From a virus (lineage: Duplodnaviria; Heunggongvirae; Uroviricota; Caudoviricetes), in the IMG/VR virus record IMGVR_UViG_2834277561_000001, positions 58,688 through 122,687 of that record: 64,000 nt of DNA; one strand, written 5' to 3'. A program made the position numbers and the translations under genes. The notes beneath the pieces are model-generated. The model was given only the letters and a program-made list of their open reading frames with translations. It searched no databases and was not told where the DNA came from. This document shows positions 8,250 to 57,821 of this stretch, piece by piece (positions within the stretch are counted from its first letter, which is position 1; each line of letters starts with the position of its first letter).

Positions 8250-9440
8250 GTGAACTACCGCAAAGCTAAAGCTTCTGCGGCTTCCTAGTCAATATCTCTA
8301 CTGAGACAAGTTTATCTAGGCTATCTCCGCAGTTCCTGCGGTTCTTATTCTCAATCCTTCATTTAGGATATTTATTGCTGCGTTGATATCTCTATCGTGA
8401 TTCTCATGACAATTAGGACATGTCCATTCTCGAATACTCGTGTCTTTAATCTTTTTATTGACATATCCACAACAAGAGCATGTTTGGCTTGACGGAAACC
8501 ACGTGCTAATTTTTACAATTTCTCGCCCATACCATTGTGCTTTATATTCGAGCTGCCGCACAAATTCACTCCACGAGACATCTGCAACTGATTTTGATAT
8601 CTGTTTATTGCTCATCATTTCCTTGATTTTCAAATTCTCAAGACATATTGTTTGGTTTTCACAAATAAGCCTTTTTGACAATTTGTTTAGAAAATCTTTT
8701 CTCTGATTTGCAATTTTCTCATGTTGTTTTGCAACTTTAATTCTGCATTTATTTCTGTTTTTACTTCCTTTTTGACATCTTGATAAGTCTTTTTGTAATT
8801 TCCGAAGCCTGGATTCTGACTTGGATAAATATTTTGGATTGCCTATTTTTTCTTCATTGGATAAAATAGCAAAATCTTTTAATCCTAAATCTATTCCAAC
8901 TTCACATTCTGATTTTGGCAGCTTTTCAATTTCATTCCGTTTAACCAAAACTGAAACGTAATATTTTCCAGATGGTTTCCGTGAGATGGTTACTGATTTT
9001 ATTAGTCCATCAAAATCTCTATGTTTCTTTAATCTTACTAATCCGATTTTTGGAAGCTTAATATATCTGTCTGAAACATAAATATTTCCGCCTTTATTAT
9101 TGGTGGTATAAGAGTAGTTGTGTGTTTTCTTGCTCTTGAATTTTGGAAAACCTGTTTCTGGACTACGAAAGAAATTTTTATATGCTGTCTGTAGGTTCAG
9201 TTGTGCATTTGCTAAAGCAAGAGAATCAACTTCTTTCAACCATTCAAACTCTTTCTTATACTGAGCTGGTGTATTGTGCAAAGTTTTCTTTGTTTGTTTA
9301 TAATACTCGATCTTATCTGAAAGCATCTGATTATAAATGAATCTGACACAACCAAAACATTTTGCAAAATATATTCTTTGCTCTACATTTGGATATAATC
9401 TATATTTATATGCCATCAACATTCATAATCACTTCCTTTC
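8250..9440 (-). mobile_element. IS200/IS605-family solo-TnpB element; right end defined, left end not
   Basis: Subterminal hairpin CCGCAGAAGC-TTTA-GCTTTGCGG followed by GTAGTTCAC ending at 8250; no tnpA nearby. Confidence 0.75.
8316..9422 (-). CDS. tnpB: TnpB RNA-guided endonuclease
   Basis: AYKYRLYP N-terminus; RuvC residues in GIDLG, CLENL and DRDINAA; zinc finger CSCCG..CPNC. Confidence 0.95.
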   Translation of the reverse strand: MLMAYKYRLYPNVEQRIYFAKCFGCVRFIYNQMLSDKIEYYKQTKKTLHNTPAQYKKEFEWLKEVDSLALANAQLNLQTAYKNFFRSPETGFPKFKSKKTHNYSYTTNNKGGNIYVSDRYIKLPKIGLVRLKKHRDFDGLIKSVTISRKPSGKYYVSVLVKRNEIEKLPKSECEVGIDLGLKDFAILSNEEKIGNPKYLSKSESRLRKLQKDLSRCQKGSKNRNKCRIKVAKQHEKIANQRKDFLNKLSKRLICENQTICLENLKIKEMMSNKQISKSVADVSWSEFVRQLEYKAQWYGREIVKISTWFPSSQTCSCCGYVNKKIKDTSIREWTCPNCHENHDRDINAAINILNEGLRIRTAGTAEIA

Positions 9441-12602: not shown

Positions 12603-13593
12603 CAACCTCTAAATAAGAAGTTAGACTATATCATAGCCATATTATTTCTAACTTAGGCTCTCGGCACTTCCTTAATTGGATTTTCACCAATAAAGTACTC
12701 TACTCAGTTACTCCCATTCTTCCTGAACGGAAGAGTGGTATCTTTTCGATAGTCGTTTGATTTTTATGTAATAAGAATTATCTTTTTATAAAGCTATAAT
12801 GTTTCTTATATAAAGTTTTATTCCTAATTGATTTATTAATTTGTGATCTCACGGCTTCTGCGTCATGAGTTTTCGCAACTCCAATATCTATTAAATACTG
12901 ACAACATGGAACTATATAATCAAAAGATTTTTTAAATATTCCATCAAAATATAAGTCGATAGGTGTAGATCGTCCATTATTTATACCTGGTCTACTTTGT
13001 TTTTCTTTTGCTAATTCTTTGTCTTTACTATATTTTTCAGATAAAGTTTTATTTTTATAATTAGGATTTTTATGTCCTGTATAATCTGGACGATGACATT
13101 TACTATATTCAATGTTTTCTTGTCTTGTTACCCATTCCAGATTATCAGAATTAGGATTGGCTCTATTGTAATCAATATGATTTATTTCAGAATAATTATT
13201 AGGATTTGGAACGAAGGCAATTGCAACTAAAATATGTACAAAAACGCTTCTCCACCCTTTATCTGGAATTTTTATGGTACACATTGTGTATCCATCGGCA
13301 TTATAATAATGATTTCGTTCAACGCCGTCCCATATTACTCTTCCTAAATTCGATACTGTTATTTTAGTGCCTTTATATTCAATTTCTTTAAATAATTCTT
13401 TCAAAATTATCACTCCTTAAAATCAAGTGACAATTCTTATTACATACTTAACACAGGATTCTTTCGTTCCCTGTTAGCATATTCCCTAACCGCCATTTCC
13501 TGCGATTCCTAATTCGTGAAATATACACCCTACATTTGTAGGTTCACCGAGTTTTATTTTCTTACGTTTCCGTAAGATTCGACATTAATGGTC
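12603..13593 (-). mobile_element. Group I self-splicing intron (991 nt) carrying a homing endonuclease
   Basis: P1: exon UUCGAU pairs with intron GUCGAA with a U-G pair at the splice site; P4 CAGG/CCUG (AACAGGGAA...AAUCCUGUG); R-like AAACGACUAUC; S-like GAUAUAGUC; terminal omega-G at 12603; splicing restores QFD-VDGD in frame. Confidence 0.92.
12778..13413 (-). CDS. Intron-encoded HNH homing endonuclease
   Basis: VHILVAIAFVPNP...INHIDYNRANPNSDNLEWVTRQEN is an HNH_3-type motif. Confidence 0.9.
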   Translation of the reverse strand: MIILKELFKEIEYKGTKITVSNLGRVIWDGVERNHYYNADGYTMCTIKIPDKGWRSVFVHILVAIAFVPNPNNYSEINHIDYNRANPNSDNLEWVTRQENIEYSKCHRPDYTGHKNPNYKNKTLSEKYSKDKELAKEKQSRPGINNGRSTPIDLYFDGIFKKSFDYIVPCCQYLIDIGVAKTHDAEAVRSQINKSIRNKTLYKKHYSFIKR

Positions 13594-15429
13594 ATCGAAT
13601 TGGAGAATTTTGCTAATCAAATCATGAGTACTGGTATAAATACCGTCAGTTGTGAACCATTCTCTGATTTTTTCAGCACGCTCACCGTATGCTTTATTTG
13701 CCACATTAAAACGAATCGCATGTTCTTTATATAGATGAGGACTACGTAAACAATCTAATTTGTCGTAATACTTAAACAACCAACAGAAGACTTCTTTATC
13801 TGCAAGTAATCCAATAGGATTTTCAATATGACCAAACCAATATTCACATGCCGCATAAAAATCTGGAAGTAAAAAAGTATACTTCCCATTAATTTCCAAG
13901 CGACCACTACGATATTGTTTAAGTAAACTATCTTTGATCTCACGAAGTACATCTTTTGCATAAGTATCATTTAACAACGGTGGATATAATTTAACACACT
14001 TCTGAAAGGCGGTCATGTTATTGTTATACGGAGTGATTCCGAGAATTTCCATCATGGTATCCTGAGAAGTACAGATGTTGGTGATCTTATCTATAGACTT
14101 GGATGCGAGAAGTTTTATTTCATCATCTGTTACATTTGTAAGCGTCTGTAACATTTGATAATTTATTTTGGCATTCTTTATACGGGATTCTTCTGTATTA
14201 CATCTGCCTGCTTGACAATGATATTTCTTGAAATATTCTTTATATTCGTCCCAGGAATCATAGAACTTATACATCTTAAACTGACTTTTTGTAAAAATAA
14301 TCTGAATATCTTCGTCGATAATATTATGTTCTTTCCCATAAATATCTACGATGATAGGAGAGTAGTTGTTTATCTCAACAAATTTCCGGAAATCAAATAC
14401 TCCGAGAAGACCTTTTACCCACGGTGCACGGAACATTGTGTTTTTGTCCATCACACTTGGCAACATCATTCCAACCCCATCTGTATGAGGAATGGGAACT
14501 TGCCCCGTTTTTCTTTCTATTGAATAATCTGTTTCATCGATAAAATCAAAAACTCCGGATACATTTGTCTCAAAATCATCAATTACAATACATCGATCAA
14601 TATCAAAATCAACCCATTCATCAGTTGCCGAATTCGCTAATGCCATATATGCAAGATGTTTGTTGACATTATTCCCGCCTTTAGAATTAATCTTATCAAT
14701 TGTAAGCCCACACATAACAGTTTTTTCAACTGCATTCCATATAGATTCTTTTATAAAAACCGCTTTCTTTTTTCTGATCTGCCCAGCGGACGAAGTGAAA
14801 TATCTATACTTTTCACCTTTATAAGTAAATCCAAAAAACGAAAGATCTTTAAATACGTCAAAGTAATACACTTGCACAACCATCAGCGCATCCGTTAATT
14901 CATCCTTTTTGATACCTATCGTTCTAGTAAGAGATGATTCGAATACAGAAATAATATTCGTATCTTTAAGCTCGGTATCTCTCAGATTTCGCAATTCAAT
15001 TTTTTTAGGATAATCCTTCCCGATGGAAGAGTAATATTCAATTTTATTTTCAATATTTTCTTTATGAATTATTTTGTTATGCATAACTGCTAACAATTGA
15101 TTTTTTGATTCTTTTGCTTTTTCTCTTTTATGGGAAATTAATCGATATGTAAAATTGAACCGAAATGCTAATTCATTGAATTTTTCAATATCAGAGATGT
15201 TAAGGTTTTCATCTTGATTAAATTCATAGTTACTATCTTTTTTTAGTAACTTGATAATCCTGTCAGTCCCACCAAGTTTAATAATCTCATTTTTTATATC
15301 CTCTAATCGATTATTCAAATAGTTTCTTTCCTGGCGGTATTTACAGTTCATATCATGTAGATACTTTTCATGATTGCTATAAAAATGTCCAGTATCTACA
15401 CTGTACATATTAATTTGTGTATCTAGCAT
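13594..15429 (-). CDS. YonO-type single-subunit RNA polymerase, exon 1 (spliced product 940 aa)
   Basis: SSAGQIR, TDGVGM, FRAPWVKG, IFTKSQFK and RSPHL motifs of the RdRP-like/YonO family; ends ISKILQFD. Confidence 0.85.
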
Positions 15430-17069: not shown

Positions 17070-18285
17070 GTCAACTACCCACAAGCTAAAGCTTGATGGG
17101 CTTGTAGCTCGATTAGACTTCGCAATTACATTTAAGAGTGTAATTGCTTATTCCAAAGCATAAACTACCTATCAGGACTAGAGCCAACCCCTAAAATTCT
17201 TTTTCCCTCTGTTAATATATTTTTTGCAGCGTTTATATCTCTATCGTGATGAGTATGACATTCAGGACAAGTCCATTTTCTTATATATAATGGTTTCTTT
17301 CCAGTAATACAACCACAACAAGAACATATTTGAGAACTCGGAAACCATCTATCAATTTTTACAACAGTTCTTCCTTTATTCTCCGCCTTATATTCCAACA
17401 TATTAATAAACATAGACCAACCAACATCTGCAACAGATAAAGCTAAATGATGATTTTTCATCATACCTTTTACATTCAAATCTTCCAAAGATATAACTTG
17501 GTTCTCGTTAGTAATCTTATAAGAGATTTTATGTAAATAATCTTTTCGTTGATTTACAACACGTTGATTCAACCTAGCAACTTTCATTTTCTGTCTGTTA
17601 TAATTATTACTTCCTTTTGTCATTTTACTTAACTTTCGCTGTTCTTTTTTTAGCTTAGGCAAATTTTTTCGCAATGATTGTAATACAGGAAATTTAATTC
17701 CATCAGAACAAATCGCTAAATCAGTTAATCCTAAATCTATTCCTATTTCTTTGTTTACTTTGGGCAAAGTTTCATCTGTTTCAGCTTCTTTCCAAAGTAT
17801 AGAAATATAAAACTCGTTAGTAGGTGTCATGGAAATAGTACAAGATTTTACAATTCCAATTTTATGCCTATGATTGACAATTTTTATCTTTCCTAGTTTA
17901 GGTAGTTTTATTGTTTCATCATCAATAGGAAATCCATTAGCAATCATGGTTTTATAACTATTTTTAGAACATTTCTTACTCTTGTATTTAGGAAATCCTT
18001 TATTTGGTTGTTTAAAAAATCCAGAAAATGCAGATTGTAAATCAATTTGAGTAAAACATAGAGCTTGTCCATCTACTTCTTTCAACCATTCATATTCCTT
18101 TTTATAAAAAGCAGGTGTGTTTATCTTGCTTTTCTTGTTTTCTTCGTAATATTTGATATTGTCGGAGAGTGCTTGATTCCAATACCATCTGCAACAACCA
18201 AAAGTTTTAAGTATTAACATTTTTTGTTCATCTGTCGGAAAGCATCTAACTTTATATGCTTTTATATTGTTCACCTCCTTCAATA
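17070..18285 (-). mobile_element. Second IS200/IS605-family solo-TnpB element
   Basis: Right-end hairpin CCCATCAAGC-TTTA-GCTTGTGGG followed by TAGTTGAC ending at 17070; same architecture as the 8250 end. Confidence 0.75.
17165..18283 (-). CDS. tnpB: TnpB RNA-guided endonuclease (possible ATA start at 18265)
   Basis: [29 protein letters not shown] and DRDINAA motifs. Confidence 0.95.
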
Positions 18286-52269: not shown

Positions 52270-52614
52270 ATGATCACAGATGATGAAGTAGGTAAATACA
52301 AAAAGAAAGCTGACTCGAATATATCAAAATCAAAGGCAAAATCGAAACATAAACATATATACAAGTCTTGTTTGATTACTGGAAGTTTCGGTAACACAAA
52401 TTTGCAACATGTATCTATTGCGTCATATTGTACTATTTGTGGAAAAATTGGCGGGAATATTGATCCGACGCGAGACGTTGTAGAACATGTTTCAGGCAAG
52501 CATCTTAGAATGCTTAGTAAAGAAGAAATTCTTGAGCAGAATAAAGATCTTGAAATATTTGATATTGGTAATATGTTTGCTAAATATGTACCGTTAAATA
52601 AGGAGGAAAAATAA
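52270..52614 (+). CDS. Hypothetical protein
   Basis: HKHIY..C..CTICGK; SD present. Confidence 0.6.
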   Translation: MITDDEVGKYKKKADSNISKSKAKSKHKHIYKSCLITGSFGNTNLQHVSIASYCTICGKIGGNIDPTRDVVEHVSGKHLRMLSKEEILEQNKDLEIFDIGNMFAKYVPLNKEEK

Positions 52615-52759
52615 TATGGGAATCACATGTAAGCAGTTTGGAAAAGTAAGAGGAATGATGCAACGAGTTGAGAATGAGAAGACAAAGAAACACAATGAAG
52701 CTGTGAAGAAAAAGTCAAAAGACAAGAAATGATGAAACCGTAGTTTCATTGGGATTTTA

Positions 52760-52829
52760 ATACTACATATTGTGGGGGTTACTCATATATATATACAATA
52801 TATAGTGTTTACAAATCTATATATTGTGG
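52760..52829. promoter_or_regulatory. Three NrdR-box-like 16-bp palindromes
   Basis: ATACTACATATTGTGG (52760), ATACAATATATAGTGT (52793) and AATCTATATATTGTGG (52814), versus consensus aCaCwAtATaTwGtgt. Confidence 0.55.
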
Positions 52830-53062
52830 CAATGGAACAGCTAGGAACTTGTTTGGCGACAACCTAGCTGCTCCGATTAAAATATAGGATAAACTATATT
52901 TGTTCTTAGTATAACAAATCTATTTGGCTTATTCAAGTCGAGTTTATCCCATTCATGTATTCCAAAAGAGGAATCAATTGGATAGTGGGTGTGGGTTTCA
53001 TCCGTTGAACTTAAAGCTTCAAAAATACTATATAAAATTTCATGGTTGAATACATATTTGAG

Positions 53063-53323
53063 GTTTAGGAAATATGTGATTTTACATGGTAGTAAACCTC
53101 AACAGATACATTACTGTCTTTATTTAACGTTTGAGAGCTATGTTGTTTTACATGGTAGTAAACCTCCATAGATGATTTTAATTCAGATGAACTGGCTGAT
53201 TATACTTCTGCATTGGAATACGTTTGAGAACTATGTTGTTTTACATGGTAGTAAACCTAGAGAAAATTCTAAATCAACAAATAGGCTGTTTGAGAACTAT
53301 GTTGTTTTATATGGAAGCAAACT
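53063..53323 (+). CRISPR. CRISPR mini-array: four 36-bp repeats, spacers of 30, 57 and 30 nt
   Basis: Repeats at 53063, 53129, 53222 and 53288; consensus GTTTGAGAACTATGTTGTTTTACATGGTAGTAAACC resembles type II-A repeats; no cas1/cas2/cas9 in the window. Confidence 0.9.
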
Positions 53324-53425
53324 TTAAATGTATGTGTTTTTGTAATGCCTCTGTTTAAGACTTACGTGATTATGTATAGCATTGAACCAAAATCATTTAT
53401 AAAAAATGAATGGAAGGACTTTTTT

Positions 53426-54688
53426 GTGAAAGTACAAAGAGCTGAGAAACATAGAATAAAGAAAAATAATAAATTTTATTTGTTAATAGATGATTTTTGT
53501 TGGAAATCTAAAAATATGTATAATTATGGAAATTACATTATTCGACAGGAATTTATTTCAACATCTAAATTGAAAGAAGAAGGATTTGCCGAACATGCAA
53601 ATTGGATTCAATACAATGCATTATATCAAATATGCAAAAGTTCAGACTCATATGTTGCACTTGGAAGCATAGCGGCACAGGCAACATTACGAAAATTAGA
53701 AAAAAATTGGAAATCATTTTTTGAATCAATAAAAGATTACCAGATTCATCCTGAAAAATATCAAGGAAGACCTAAAATTCCAAAGTATTTAGATAAAGAA
53801 AAAGGAAGATATGAATTAGGTATTAATAATCAACGGTGCAAAATCAAAGATGGATATGTATATTTTGGTTGGAAGCCATTGCGTTGTTTGAATGGAATTT
53901 TTAAATCTAAAATTCCAGATGATGCGAAATTAATTCAATGCAGATTTGTCCCAAAAAAGGATGAATATGTTCTGGAAGTTGTATACGAAATAAGTCTTCT
54001 AAATATTAATAAGAAGAAGTCACAAAATATTGCAGCTATTGATTTAGGTGTTGATAATTTAATCACTCTTACAACCAATTGTGGTACACAACCAATAGTG
54101 ATTAATGGAAAACCACTTAAAGCAATTAATCAATATTACAATAAGGTGATTTCAGATATGAGATCGGATTTAAAATTACGAAATGATATGAATTGGTCAC
54201 ATAAAATGCAAAAAATTACCACAAAAAGGAACTATAAAGTGGAAGATTACATACATAAAGCAACTAAAATAGTAATTGATTTTCTTAAAGATAATGATAT
54301 CGATACATTGGTATGTGGATACAATACAGGATGGAAACAAGAAACGAATATCGGAAAAATAAATAATCAAAATTTTGTATATATTCCTCATTCGTCGATC
54401 ATAGAGAAACTATCTTACAAATGTGAGAACGAAGGTATTTTATTTAAAACAACAGAAGAAGGATATACAAGTGGCACTTCTTTTCTTGATGAAGAAGATC
54501 CTTGTGAGGAAAATTATGATAAAAGCAGACGTAAATATCGAGGATTATTCATTTCAAACAATGGCATACCTATCAATGCTGACGTGAATGGAAGTTATCA
54601 GATTATGAAAAAGGTATTTCCAAATGCGTTTAAAAATGGAGTAGAAAATGCAATTTTACATCCTATAGTAGTTAATATTCCAGCATAA
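53426..54688 (+). CDS. tnpB: TnpB/Cas12-like RuvC nuclease adjacent to the CRISPR array (likely GTG start at 53426; track start 53345)
   Basis: AAIDLGVDN (RuvC-I), VCGYN..WKQ with displaced Glu in TEEGYTS, NADVNGS (RuvC-III); no zinc finger; GGAAGGA SD before GTG. Confidence 0.88.
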   Translation: MKVQRAEKHRIKKNNKFYLLIDDFCWKSKNMYNYGNYIIRQEFISTSKLKEEGFAEHANWIQYNALYQICKSSDSYVALGSIAAQATLRKLEKNWKSFFESIKDYQIHPEKYQGRPKIPKYLDKEKGRYELGINNQRCKIKDGYVYFGWKPLRCLNGIFKSKIPDDAKLIQCRFVPKKDEYVLEVVYEISLLNINKKKSQNIAAIDLGVDNLITLTTNCGTQPIVINGKPLKAINQYYNKVISDMRSDLKLRNDMNWSHKMQKITTKRNYKVEDYIHKATKIVIDFLKDNDIDTLVCGYNTGWKQETNIGKINNQNFVYIPHSSIIEKLSYKCENEGILFKTTEEGYTSGTSFLDEEDPCEENYDKSRRKYRGLFISNNGIPINADVNGSYQIMKKVFPNAFKNGVENAILHPIVVNIPA

Positions 54689-54736
54689 ATGGTGTTTAAA
54701 AATAACGATGAAACTCACATTTCAGAGGGGATTTTT

Positions 54737-55401
54737 ATGGAAGCATGGATTTTACAAGGTTTTGCAATAATTGGCTTTGCTATAACAATTGGACTTATGT
54801 TTATTCTGTTCTATATCGTTATGTGTAAAGTCAATATTTTGTTTAACAAGTATTATAAATTACAAAAGATAAAGAGAGAAAGCAAAAATAGGTTTCGACA
54901 ACCACCTGTAGCAAAATGTTACTGTCTCTATTGCAAATATGCAGAATATTTCGGAGATGACAGATGTGGTAAATGTAGCCTATGGGGAAATGATATTGTA
55001 ATCAAGGATAACGGCTTTTGTTATAGAGCTGATCCTAAAAAATAAAGATGAAATGATTGTTTCACGGTGTGATTAAAAGAAAGATAAAAGGAATAGTAAT
55101 GAATAAGAATATATCAGTAAATGTAAAAGCATGTCAGATGTTGGATGTAGAAATAACCCCAGATGAATTACTAAAAGGAATTATTAATGTTTGTCAACTA
55201 GATTATTTATTTTCTTCAACGAAAGATGTTTATTGGAGACTTGAAAAATGCGGAAAAACAGAGGTTCTAAATCAATATGTTAATTTTTCATTAAATTCAC
55301 AGCATCCTGAATTTGAAGTGTTTCGTACTATTTCTGATAAAGAAATCGTTGCGATTTATAAATGTATAAACAAACTTAAAGAATTTATTAATGTAAAATA
55401 A
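54737..55401 (+). CDS. Two hypothetical ORFs (54737-55045, membrane anchor plus Cys cluster; ~55099-55401)
   Basis: Hydrophobic N-terminus and CYCLYC..C..C motif in the first; both co-oriented. Confidence 0.6.
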
Positions 55402-56206: not shown

Positions 56207-56560
56207 ATGAAACTAATTGATAAAACCATAGATCTTATGGAATATACATACAGAGAGACAAGTAGAAAAGATCGATTCCCAATCAAATATCGTACTATAA
56301 TTTTTGAAATGCAAACAAACTCTCTTAATATTTATAAAATGCTTTTAACTGCAAATAAACTTCCGATTTGTGGAAATGGATCAGAACGACAGCTGCTACA
56401 ATTAAAAGCGGTGGCATTATGCGATGATTTGTCCGGGCTAATTGAATTGGCAAATAAATTGAAAATAATCAGTATTGATAAAATGGGGAAATGGCAAGCT
56501 TATTTGACTCCTGTAAAAAATATGATTTTGGCATGGATAAAATCAGATTCAAAAAGATAA
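56207..56560 (+). CDS. avd: DGR accessory variability determinant (four-helix bundle)
   Basis: 117 aa, located between target and TR; FPIKYR..., LIELANKLKIIS..KMGKW..MILAW. Confidence 0.85.
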   Translation: MKLIDKTIDLMEYTYRETSRKDRFPIKYRTIIFEMQTNSLNIYKMLLTANKLPICGNGSERQLLQLKAVALCDDLSGLIELANKLKIISIDKMGKWQAYLTPVKNMILAWIKSDSKR

Positions 56561-56583
56561 GATTCTAGGGTGTCTGCTGTTTG

Positions 56584-56666
56584 ACGCGCTATGTGCAGAT
56601 TGTCAACTCCAATGGTAACGTGAACTACAACGATTGCAACTGGAACGACTACGGTGTGCGTCCGTT
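56584..56666 (+). ncRNA. DGR template repeat (TR)
   Basis: AAC-rich copy ACGCGCTATGTGCAGATTGTCAACTCCAATGGTAACGTGAACTACAACGATTGCAACTGGAACGACTACGGTGTGCGTCCGTT; its 3' flank differs from the shared VR flank. Confidence 0.95.
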
Positions 56667-56777
56667 CTGGGGTGAAAAATGCAGAAAAGTACGTATTTAT
56701 ATACTGAAATCAGAGTCTCACCATCAAAAGAGCAAATATCCTTTCTTACCACAAGATAAAAATAAAGGAATACAAAA

Positions 56778-57821
56778 ATGGAAGATTATAGTTTTGAGTC
56801 TGTTTCTAATTTTGAAGCACTATATAAAGCATATCGTAAATCCAGAAAAGGATCGGGACATAAAAAGAGTAAATATAAATTTGCTCAAACTGCTTTGTAT
56901 GGTGTTTCAATGCTTAAATATCAATTGAATTCTAAGAAATATTTCATTGACAGATATAACAAATTTAAAGTTTATGAGCCGAAAGAAAGAGAAATTGCTG
57001 CCGGAAGTTTTAAGGATAAAATTGTGCAACATTCATTGTGTGATAACTACCTTTTACCGTATTTGTCTCATCATTTTATAGAGAATAATTTTGCCGGACA
57101 AATTGGCAAAGGAACTCATTTCGGATTAAAAGTTTTGGAACAGCATATGCTAAGTGCTTATTCAGAATATGGGATGAACTGTTGGATTGTAAAGTGTGAT
57201 GTTAGAAAATATTTCTATAATATTGATCACGACATTCTTAAGGATATTATAGAATTTCATTTTTCAGATTCTGATATTCTCTGGTTATGTAAAAAGTATA
57301 TAGATAGTGCAGAAAGTCCAGGACTTCCTTTAGGTAATCAAGTTAGCCAGGTGTTTGCGTTATTATATTTGTCGGGGTTGGATCAATTCATAACAGGGGA
57401 ATTAGGCGCTAAGTATTATGGAAGATACATGGACGATTTTTATATTATTGTACGGTCAAAAACACACGCGAAAGACTGCTTAGAATACATTAATACATTT
57501 GTTCAATCATTAAATATTGAGTTAAATGAAAAGAGTCAGATTATTCCGTTCAAAAATGGTATTCGATTTTGTGGTTTTCATACTTATATAACCAGTAGTG
57601 GTATTCCAATTCGAAAATTAACTAATGAGAAAAAGAGAAAAGGAAAGAAGAAATATATAAAAATGGCAAAGCTGGTTAATGAAGGAAAAATTAGCAAAAA
57701 GGATTTTGAAACTTCGTATTCTTCATTTAGAAATCATTTGTCATTTGGGAATTGTGTGAAATTTAGTTATAAATTGGACAAAGAAATATCTGAAGTGTTG
57801 GATAAGGAAGGAACAGAATGA
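56778..57821 (+). CDS. DGR reverse transcriptase
   Basis: EPKEREI, FKDKIVQH, GKGTH, KCDVRKYFYNIDH, GLPLGNQVSQ and YGRYMDDF motifs. Confidence 0.95.
   Translation: MEDYSFESVSNFEALYKAYRKSRKGSGHKKSKYKFAQTALYGVSMLKYQLNSKKYFIDRYNKFKVYEPKEREIAAGSFKDKIVQHSLCDNYLLPYLSHHFIENNFAGQIGKGTHFGLKVLEQHMLSAYSEYGMNCWIVKCDVRKYFYNIDHDILKDIIEFHFSDSDILWLCKKYIDSAESPGLPLGNQVSQVFALLYLSGLDQFITGELGAKYYGRYMDDFYIIVRSKTHAKDCLEYINTFVQSLNIELNEKSQIIPFKNGIRFCGFHTYITSSGIPIRKLTNEKKRKGKKKYIKMAKLVNEGKISKKDFETSYSSFRNHLSFGNCVKFSYKLDKEISEVLDKEGTE

Follow-up and report, generated by a model that had tools for sequence, protein, structure and literature searches.

Can a nuclease of the TnpB family, known from transposons, be guided by a CRISPR array of type II-A origin? 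The question is raised by a short cassette of a jumbo phage of the gut (Caudoviricetes; IMG/VR virus record IMGVR_UViG_2834277561_000001, 201,430 bp, rated 100% complete, ~32% GC). We analyzed bases 58688-122687 of this record, a stretch of 64,000 nucleotides (nt) which is called the window below. In the cassette a mini-array is followed by a gene for a TnpB-like protein, and an earlier note on this DNA had left two readings side by side, i.e. a new compact phage effector that uses captured type II repeats, or an array that exploits host Cas9 and has a TnpB gene as a chance neighbor. We favor the view, with a probability of about 0.62, that window positions 52954-54688 are one phage-borne RNA-guided nuclease module, similar to the TranC and type V-U systems, which reads a captured type II-A array. 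Apparently the cassette is a weapon against rival phages. Its features in window coordinates are:

52732 to 52748, + strand: intergenic hairpin motif (ATGAAACCGTAGTTTCA) directly 3' of the stop of the upstream gene, a phage-wide junction element.
52834 to 52952, + strand: accessory RNA hairpins, with a 12-bp stem at 52834-52874 and ATAGGATAAACT...AGTTTATCCCAT at 52884-52952.
52954 to 53062, + strand: core scaffold RNA with four predicted helices, based on covariation and a covariance model that scores 106.7 bits here.
53063 to 53388, + strand: mini CRISPR array with repeats R1 to R5, delineated by repeat inspection.
53426 to 54688, + strand: gene with a GTG start for a predicted TnpB-derived nuclease of 420 amino acids, based on profiles, alignment and an AlphaFold model.
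54708 to 54724, + strand: intergenic hairpin motif (ATGAAACTCACATTTCA), 20 nt past the tnpB stop; the next gene runs from ~54738.

The relation between array and gene was examined in 47 loci from a scan of IMG/VR, which carried homologues of the protein at 37-67% identity. Loci at 51-67% identity had a mini-array with a period of 65-68 nt and 1-4 spacers; exceptions were L017, L019 and the L024-L029 group (~51%), where L and P numbers are our designations for loci and protein clusters. Across the clade loci the mini-arrays ended at the ribosome-binding site of tnpB. A maximum-likelihood tree of 43 homologues from phages placed the 24 array-bearing members, without exception, in one clade with a support of 96/95, while arrays were absent from the 19 homologues outside. 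Among those outside are elements of the IS607 type that encode a serine recombinase, L043 and L044 being true IS607-type elements. Thus array adjacency, which the earlier note had proposed to check across the clade, is conserved in a single clade, and because of this conserved linkage we rejected the idea of a chance TnpB neighbor. For a wider homologue search we used a library of representatives at 50% identity. The nearest clusters, P0122 (60%) and P0123 (57%) from Logan and ENA assemblies, both had a scaffold and an array, and P0125 and P0126 (48-49%) had neither. The family is very large: more than 6000 proteins are close, and 1014 clusters lie below 1e-30. What had been taken for a nascent system, a single event, is instead an established and widespread phage clade.

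Two library loci showed further arrangements. P0123 carries scaffold-plus-array modules on both sides of the gene (L095:741-1075 and L095:2392-2760) with different repeats, and its downstream module ends in a terminator hairpin. The locus of P0124 (53% identical; L097:4364-4800) has a scaffold-like RNA directly after the stop and, behind it, a distinct array whose 4-5 repeats (GTTTATCCCACGCGTATGTGGGATATCTC) look like type I-E; this may be a second, independent association of a TnpB with an array.

The open reading frame of the window tnpB most likely extends from the GTG at 53426, preceded by the ribosome-binding site GGAAGGA, to 54688. By curated profiles the product is a TnpB, with bit scores of 148.9 for NCBIfam guided_TnpB NF040570 (cut-off 100), 69.5 for PF01385 and 29.5 for PF07282, and with matches to Pfam OrfB_IS605 (3.7e-19) and Cas12f1-like_TNB (8e-7). 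D206, E345 and D386 were invariant in an alignment of 18 family members, transposon-borne relatives included. E345 is the relocated glutamate in the motif EEGYTS; the canonical RuvC-II glutamate position was not conserved in this alignment. As judged by these residues the catalytic triad is intact, so that the protein is predicted to be a nuclease, and the initial description of a ~420-amino-acid TnpB with RuvC aspartates and a displaced glutamate was correct. RIIr TnpB and Fanzor are known to be active with the glutamate relocated in this way (PMC13565253). The cysteines of the C4 zinc finger between RuvC-II and RuvC-III are replaced throughout the family, and the sections available of PMC10691335 report zinc-finger loss from some TnpB branches. 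An AlphaFold model of the protein had a predicted local distance difference test score (pLDDT) of 86.5. Its nearest folds were Cas12f and ISDra2 TnpB with template modelling (TM) scores of ~0.65-0.7 at 12-17% identity, and a single-sequence search of the PDB gave no match. With respect to residence in a transposon, there was neither a tnpA at the gene nor space for an omega-RNA between the stop and the junction element.

The guide RNA part of the cassette was located upstream of the array. There, ~110-150 nt before repeat 1 were highly conserved in all lineages. A four-helix structure was compatible with pairing in 95.7% of the cells over 16 sequences compared to ~40% in slid controls. Ten pairs had changed on both sides, a level reached by 0 of 500 shuffles. 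Because G.U wobbles fit the + strand only, the scaffold RNA is assigned to the + strand. We then trained a covariance model on 17 upstream scaffolds alone and searched 24 sources with it. Apart from its training copies it matched tnpB 3' ends running past the stop in 12 array-less and 5 array-bearing relatives, always on the + strand and with E values of 2e-6 to 0.6. The 3' end of tnpB is the canonical position of the omega-RNA. Because a model of upstream scaffolds recognizes these 3' ends, the scaffold is a duplicated 3'-terminal omega-RNA domain that was relocated upstream. By covariation and model match, 52954-53062 is a relocated copy of the 5' domain of the TnpB omega-RNA. At the 3' end of the window tnpB itself the covariance model had no match. 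The embedded omega-RNA copy no longer scores and thus has probably decayed. The earlier note had seen the lack of downstream space correctly, yet its conclusion that the omega-RNA was lost did not hold, since a copy of the scaffold stands upstream of the array.

No Rfam family matched the scaffold. The accessory hairpin at 52834-52874 has a conserved GTTTGGCGAC loop, and the stem sequences vary between lineages. Such accessory upstream hairpins occur in part of the clade only and are absent from L004, L006, L012 and L013. Solo scaffold-like RNA copies without arrays were seen near the cassette at L012:5543-5659 (+) and L004:3255-3359 (-). Two ideas on the scaffold were discarded. A repeat-like scaffold segment, 'R0', was supposed to co-vary with the repeat of each lineage, but the scoring matrix had no own-lineage preference. 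Likewise, the 3' continuation of the scaffold (ATATTTGAGGTTT...) was considered as a guide against leader-repeat junctions of host II-A loci; it was unsupported, the host leaders differing by 1-2 nt in register.

The array comprises 36-nt repeats at 53063-53098 (R1), 53129-53164 (R2), 53222-53257 (R3) and 53288-53323 (R4) with a spacing of 66, 93 and 66 nt, and a degenerate fifth repeat at 53353-53388 (R5). The spacers are at 53099-53128 (30 nt), 53165-53221 (57 nt), 53258-53287 (30 nt) and 53324-53352 (29 nt). The four 36-bp repeats had been recognized before; the end of the array, previously set ~100 bp before the gene, had to be moved because R5 reduces the gap to 37 nt. The double-length spacer at 53165-53221 (57 nt) and another one at L020:3895-3952 (58 nt) contain no internal repeat remnant, which is unusual for II-A-type arrays.

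The type II-A origin of the array was examined by comparison of repeats, leader end and terminal repeat. Rfam CRISPR-DR22 gave a sub-threshold match to the window repeats (E 1.6e-4), Listeria II-A repeats gave 78-80% matches, and 29-31 of 36 positions were identical to real II-A repeats. A degenerate pattern scan of GTDB genomes retrieved true arrays with very similar repeats from metagenome-assembled genomes (MAGs) of Bacillota and Tenericutes. One of these arrays sits behind cas9-cas1-cas2-csn2, with a repeat that agrees at 30-31 of 36 positions with the repeats of L004, L007 and the window (shuffles: mean 11.7, maximum 22). The junction of scaffold and repeat 1 read ATTTGAG/GTTT in 11 of 17 distinct scaffolds, with ATTTGAT in 4 others; in the window, ATTTGAG at 53056-53062 forms the last 7 nt of the scaffold and abuts repeat 1. 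In Group 1 type II-A loci the leader has ATTTGAG as its conserved 3' end, and there the leader's last 10 nt plus the first repeat were reportedly both necessary and sufficient for spacers to be integrated (PMC5382924). Furthermore, the terminal repeat of the mini-arrays keeps only its first ~22 nt, and true II-A arrays show the same degeneration. On these sequence criteria the mini-array including the leader end ATTTGAG is type II-A-derived. The II-A-like look of the repeats noted at the outset was thereby confirmed, also in the comparison with a genuine type II locus.

A search of the 201-kb phage genome for Cas1 was negative. Adjoining the array there was no cas9, cas1, cas2, csn2 or tracrRNA (trans-activating CRISPR RNA) anti-repeat; a Cas9 profile search of the genome had a silent control and so carries no weight. 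Of the absence of cas1, cas2, cas9 and tnpA claimed before, the parts on Cas1 and tnpA therefore stand, while the Cas9 search with its silent control adds nothing to it. The spacers do change between near-identical phages. Three comparisons (L014/L015/L041, L008/L038 and L021/L022) had the leader-distal spacer in common and differed in the leader-proximal one, and in one comparison the difference was on the distal side. When contigs from four DNA runs were inspected, two samples had this very array, and a bovine sample had a different array beside a ~94% identical gene. Turnover of leader-proximal spacers is the pattern of polarized acquisition of the Cas1-Cas2 type, which would be supplied by the host.

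What do the spacers target? Seven spacers of other lineages, sp21-sp26 (L013-L018 lineage) and sp32 (L021 lineage), were searched exactly. Four of them, all from the L013-L018 sister lineage, had perfect full-length (29-31-nt) protospacers outside arrays. sp23 matched a gene without assigned function in 12 small viral contigs. sp21 and sp24 both matched one tyrosine-integrase gene, present in a 28.6-kb provirus and in related gut contigs, at sites separated by ~70 nt, and sp22 matched a tubulin-like gene of 42-58-kb elements. The target contigs were viral, 14-58 kb in size and unrelated to the jumbo phage. The 5' flanks of the protospacers were GACCAAA, AGCCAAA, AACGGAA and AGAGGAA; in all four, AA occupies -2,-1 and the base at -3 is a purine (background f(AA) 0.08-0.14). 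The 3' flanks TGTATAG, AAGCAAA, GTGACAG and AGGGGTT had no common motif. A 5' motif is the geometry of TnpB and Cas12, a 3' protospacer-adjacent motif (PAM) that of Cas9. sp32, sp26 and sp25 matched their own arrays only. No target was found for sp21 in GTDB genomes, for two other arrays among INPHARED phages, for one array in five whole target records, or for all 35 spacers in the genome of the phage itself and the family loci collected. Two insertions of the IS607-type relative (L043/L044) were inspected for a transposon-associated motif (TAM); the left flanks were unlike each other and contained no motif. The search for spacer targets and a PAM, suggested earlier, thus yielded nothing for the window's own spacers (array region in INPHARED, spacer 1 in IMG/VR) and four protospacers with a 5' AA for the sister lineage. 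Together with clade-wide linkage, II-A repeats and leader end, these 5' flanks support a compact phage effector with captured type II repeats.

The module would work as follows. Scaffold, array and tnpB would be transcribed as a single + strand unit, and a guide would consist of the 3' part of a repeat and the following spacer, bound together with the scaffold RNA. Spacer 1 would be served by the scaffold in cis; for the other spacers the scaffold would work in trans, in the manner of a tracrRNA. Loaded in this way the 420-amino-acid RuvC nuclease may cut DNA of competing phages or plasmids beside a 5' motif of the RAA type. New spacers would probably be inserted by a type II-A Cas1-Cas2-Csn2 of the host, because the phage lacks a Cas1 yet has retained the leader-repeat junction of II-A. 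The observations concern the linkage, the homology of the scaffold, where the array came from, the turnover of spacers and the targets in the sister lineage; we infer transcription, processing, composition of the ribonucleoprotein, cleavage and adaptation in trans. As a tentative extension, which we consider possible but clearly less probable than the module as such, labor could be divided in a chimeric CRISPR system: the II-A leader-repeat junction of the array would still be functional, the host Cas1-Cas2-Csn2, perhaps with Cas9, would write spacers into the phage, and the TnpB-derived nuclease would read them via the relocated omega-RNA scaffold and a 5' TAM.

Several data weigh against a module of this kind. 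The TAM was derived from four protospacers of one sister lineage, two of them in one gene. The array region of the window (53095-53360, S1 to S4) had no target among INPHARED phages, nor had window spacer 1 in IMG/VR. RNAduplex analysis of scaffold versus repeat found only a repeat-like hairpin in the 3' part of the scaffold, which is expected because the repeat is palindromic, and no clear anti-repeat. None of the RNA sequencing runs searched for the locus contained it. The tnpB frame is broken in two loci: in the array-bearing phages L039 and L042 it stops after 318-319 codons and similarity continues beyond, due to a frameshift or a sequencing error. Finally, host Cas9 could read the array as well, given its close mimicry of II-A.

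The last point leads to the alternative that survives best, although we regard it as unlikely: a cas-less II-A mini-array that uses Cas9, tracrRNA and adaptation proteins of the host, whereas TnpB and scaffold travel with it for another reason, such as retention of the cassette or its mobility, and have no part in reading the spacers. The II-A-type repeats, the ATTTGAG leader end, the 30-nt spacers and the terminal repeat that degenerates after ~22 nt would all be explained; Bacillota MAGs contain genuine II-A loci whose repeats are nearly identical, and phage-encoded adaptation genes were not found. Yet this alternative assigns no role to the strict linkage with one TnpB lineage or to the fusion of the leader end with a scaffold that descends from omega-RNA. 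In addition, the protospacers had a 5' AA in 4/4 and no common 3' PAM, and the phage has no tracrRNA-like anti-repeat; a search of the whole genome returned one 17-nt match (E 0.06) and nothing longer.

Somewhat less probable still is a selfish homing or retention module, in which TnpB and scaffold spread the cassette among related co-infecting phages or keep it there, with the array as cargo or as a source of homing guides. TnpB is known to drive restorative homing (PMC13565253). The neighborhoods of the cassette differ between phages, solo scaffold copies and double modules exist, and so do IS607-type relatives with a serine recombinase. The targets, however, are in unrelated small phages and plasmid-like elements instead of empty sites of related jumbo phages, the array-bearing clade has no tnpA or transposon ends, and the turnover of spacers is polarized and CRISPR-like. 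Very improbable is an RNA-guided DNA binder like TldR or Cas12m, which would repress phage genes or rival elements and leave their DNA uncut. In its favor, the zinc finger is lost, the RuvC-II glutamate is relocated and nuclease-dead TnpB derivatives are known from phages; yet D206, E345 and D386 are invariant family-wide, also in transposon-borne relatives, and relocation of the glutamate is an active arrangement in RIIr TnpB and Fanzor (PMC13565253).

We thus return to the nuclease module and compare it with known systems. The solved LaTranC was a distant fold match of the TnpB model (TM ~0.5, 13% identity). TranC is said to have been described by Jin et al. in Cell in 2025. In the available part of PMC13565253 TranC are transposon-CRISPR intermediates with a split omega-RNA, and the cassette is similar in that the omega-RNA is divided into a scaffold and repeat-spacer guides. 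TranC clade 9 (CauTranC9), according to the passages covered of bioRxiv 10.64898/2026.03.27.714800, averages 414 amino acids and is located in a Caudoviricetes genome with 5 repeats of 38 bp and phage-matching spacers; its PAM was recovered in E. coli. The same passages report no consistent tracrRNA structure outside TranC clades 3 and 11. Compared by description only, the window system resembles clade 9 in a TnpB-sized effector without expanded REC and WED, the phage genome, a short array and the lack of cas1 and cas2. On the other hand, repeats are 36 bp here and 38 bp there. The window order is scaffold, then array, then gene, and for clade 9 a consistent tracrRNA structure is not reported in those passages. 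The TranC passages covered do not speak of an array that comes from II-A and has kept the leader end ATTTGAG intact. By this comparison of descriptions the window clade may be TranC clade 9.

Altae-Tran et al. (2023, PMC10691335), in the sections available, inferred ~50 independent captures from TnpB to Cas12, many with an array only and no other cas genes, and described RIIr-4 as a virus-specific branch with a relocated glutamate. In type V-U* of these sections the array is downstream of the gene in almost all conserved associations; here it is upstream. Cas12n (type V-N, formerly V-U4) is also a miniature effector close to TnpB, and its 5'-AAN PAM resembles the AA at -2,-1 of the four sister-lineage protospacers. 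Unlike the window system, it has 400-800 amino acids, expanded REC and WED, and a tracrRNA inside the 3' part of the gene transcript; it was not among the top 50 fold matches of the TnpB model. Cas12p, the 'hacker', is another miniature Cas12 of phages, larger and distant. With type II-A arrays the cassette shares 36-nt repeats (29-31/36 identical), ATTTGAG/GTTT, ~30-nt spacers and the degenerate terminal repeat. Unlike these and cas-less phage mini-arrays, it is fused to an omega-RNA scaffold and a gene of TnpB, and the evidence for a protospacer motif, from the sister lineage, lies on the 5' side. ISDra2 and IS607 TnpB agree with it in fold and size and in a guide 3' of a structured scaffold, which overlaps the 3' end of the gene in relatives. 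They differ in that tnpA, transposon ends and zinc finger are missing here, the scaffold is duplicated upstream, and several exchangeable guides replace one fixed guide. A new kind of effector, as proposed in the earlier note, is therefore too strong a claim: TnpB-derived effectors with arrays are already published as type V-U* and TranC, including the 414-amino-acid phage TranC clade 9 in the passages available. Unusual is the hybrid II-A/TnpB design.

The origin of Cas12 from TnpB is an active question. Published work favors an omega-RNA that was split and duplicated, and names insertion next to an array already in place only as an untested alternative, of which the present clade is a widespread natural case. 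If labor is indeed divided between host and phage as outlined above, a type V-like system would have been born by fusing a transposon guide RNA to an existing Cas9-type array and not by duplication of omega-RNA segments. If the 420-amino-acid protein uses the guides, it would be among the smallest CRISPR-linked nucleases, a phage would be able to outsource spacer acquisition to its host, and a testable system of ~1.8 kb would be at hand for the transition from a fixed transposon guide to exchangeable guides. The targets document warfare between a jumbo phage and smaller temperate elements.

In its immediate setting the cassette is followed by a junction palindrome 20 nt past the tnpB stop and by the next gene within ~50 nt of that stop, both as first noted. 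The palindromes on the two sides are real, but they do not specifically bracket the cassette because the motif ATGAAA-N6-TTTCA recurs phage-wide: ~30 good + strand copies are found at gene junctions of the phage genome, mostly just upstream of ribosome-binding sites, and loose matches number 50 compared to 11-20 in shuffles. Sites include window positions 52732, 54708 and 55048, and related phages have the motif 3' of tnpB as well. Its role may be that of a phage promoter, or it may serve in processing or recombination. No terminator-like sites were found in 52600-54800, the interval between array and gene included, and a promoter scan of the region gave fewer hits than in shuffles.

The window also contains tRNAs, integrases, a polymerase gene of RNA-dependent RNA polymerase (RdRP)-like type and, in all, three TnpB-family genes. 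The other two TnpBs, at 8316-9422 and 17165-18283 on the minus strand, are canonical, with a helix-turn-helix (HTH) domain and strong zinc-ribbon matches. The polymerase-like protein (13585-15429, minus strand, 614 amino acids) has a weak match to the RdRP family PF05183 (3.6e-8). It may belong to the YonO/crAss type of single-subunit RNA polymerases of phages, which would agree with a phage-specific promoter motif. Finally, an Avd-like gene (phrog_3206) and, after it, an RVT_1 reverse transcriptase lie at 56207-57821, 1.5 kb downstream of the cassette, and this pair is a probable diversity-generating retroelement.

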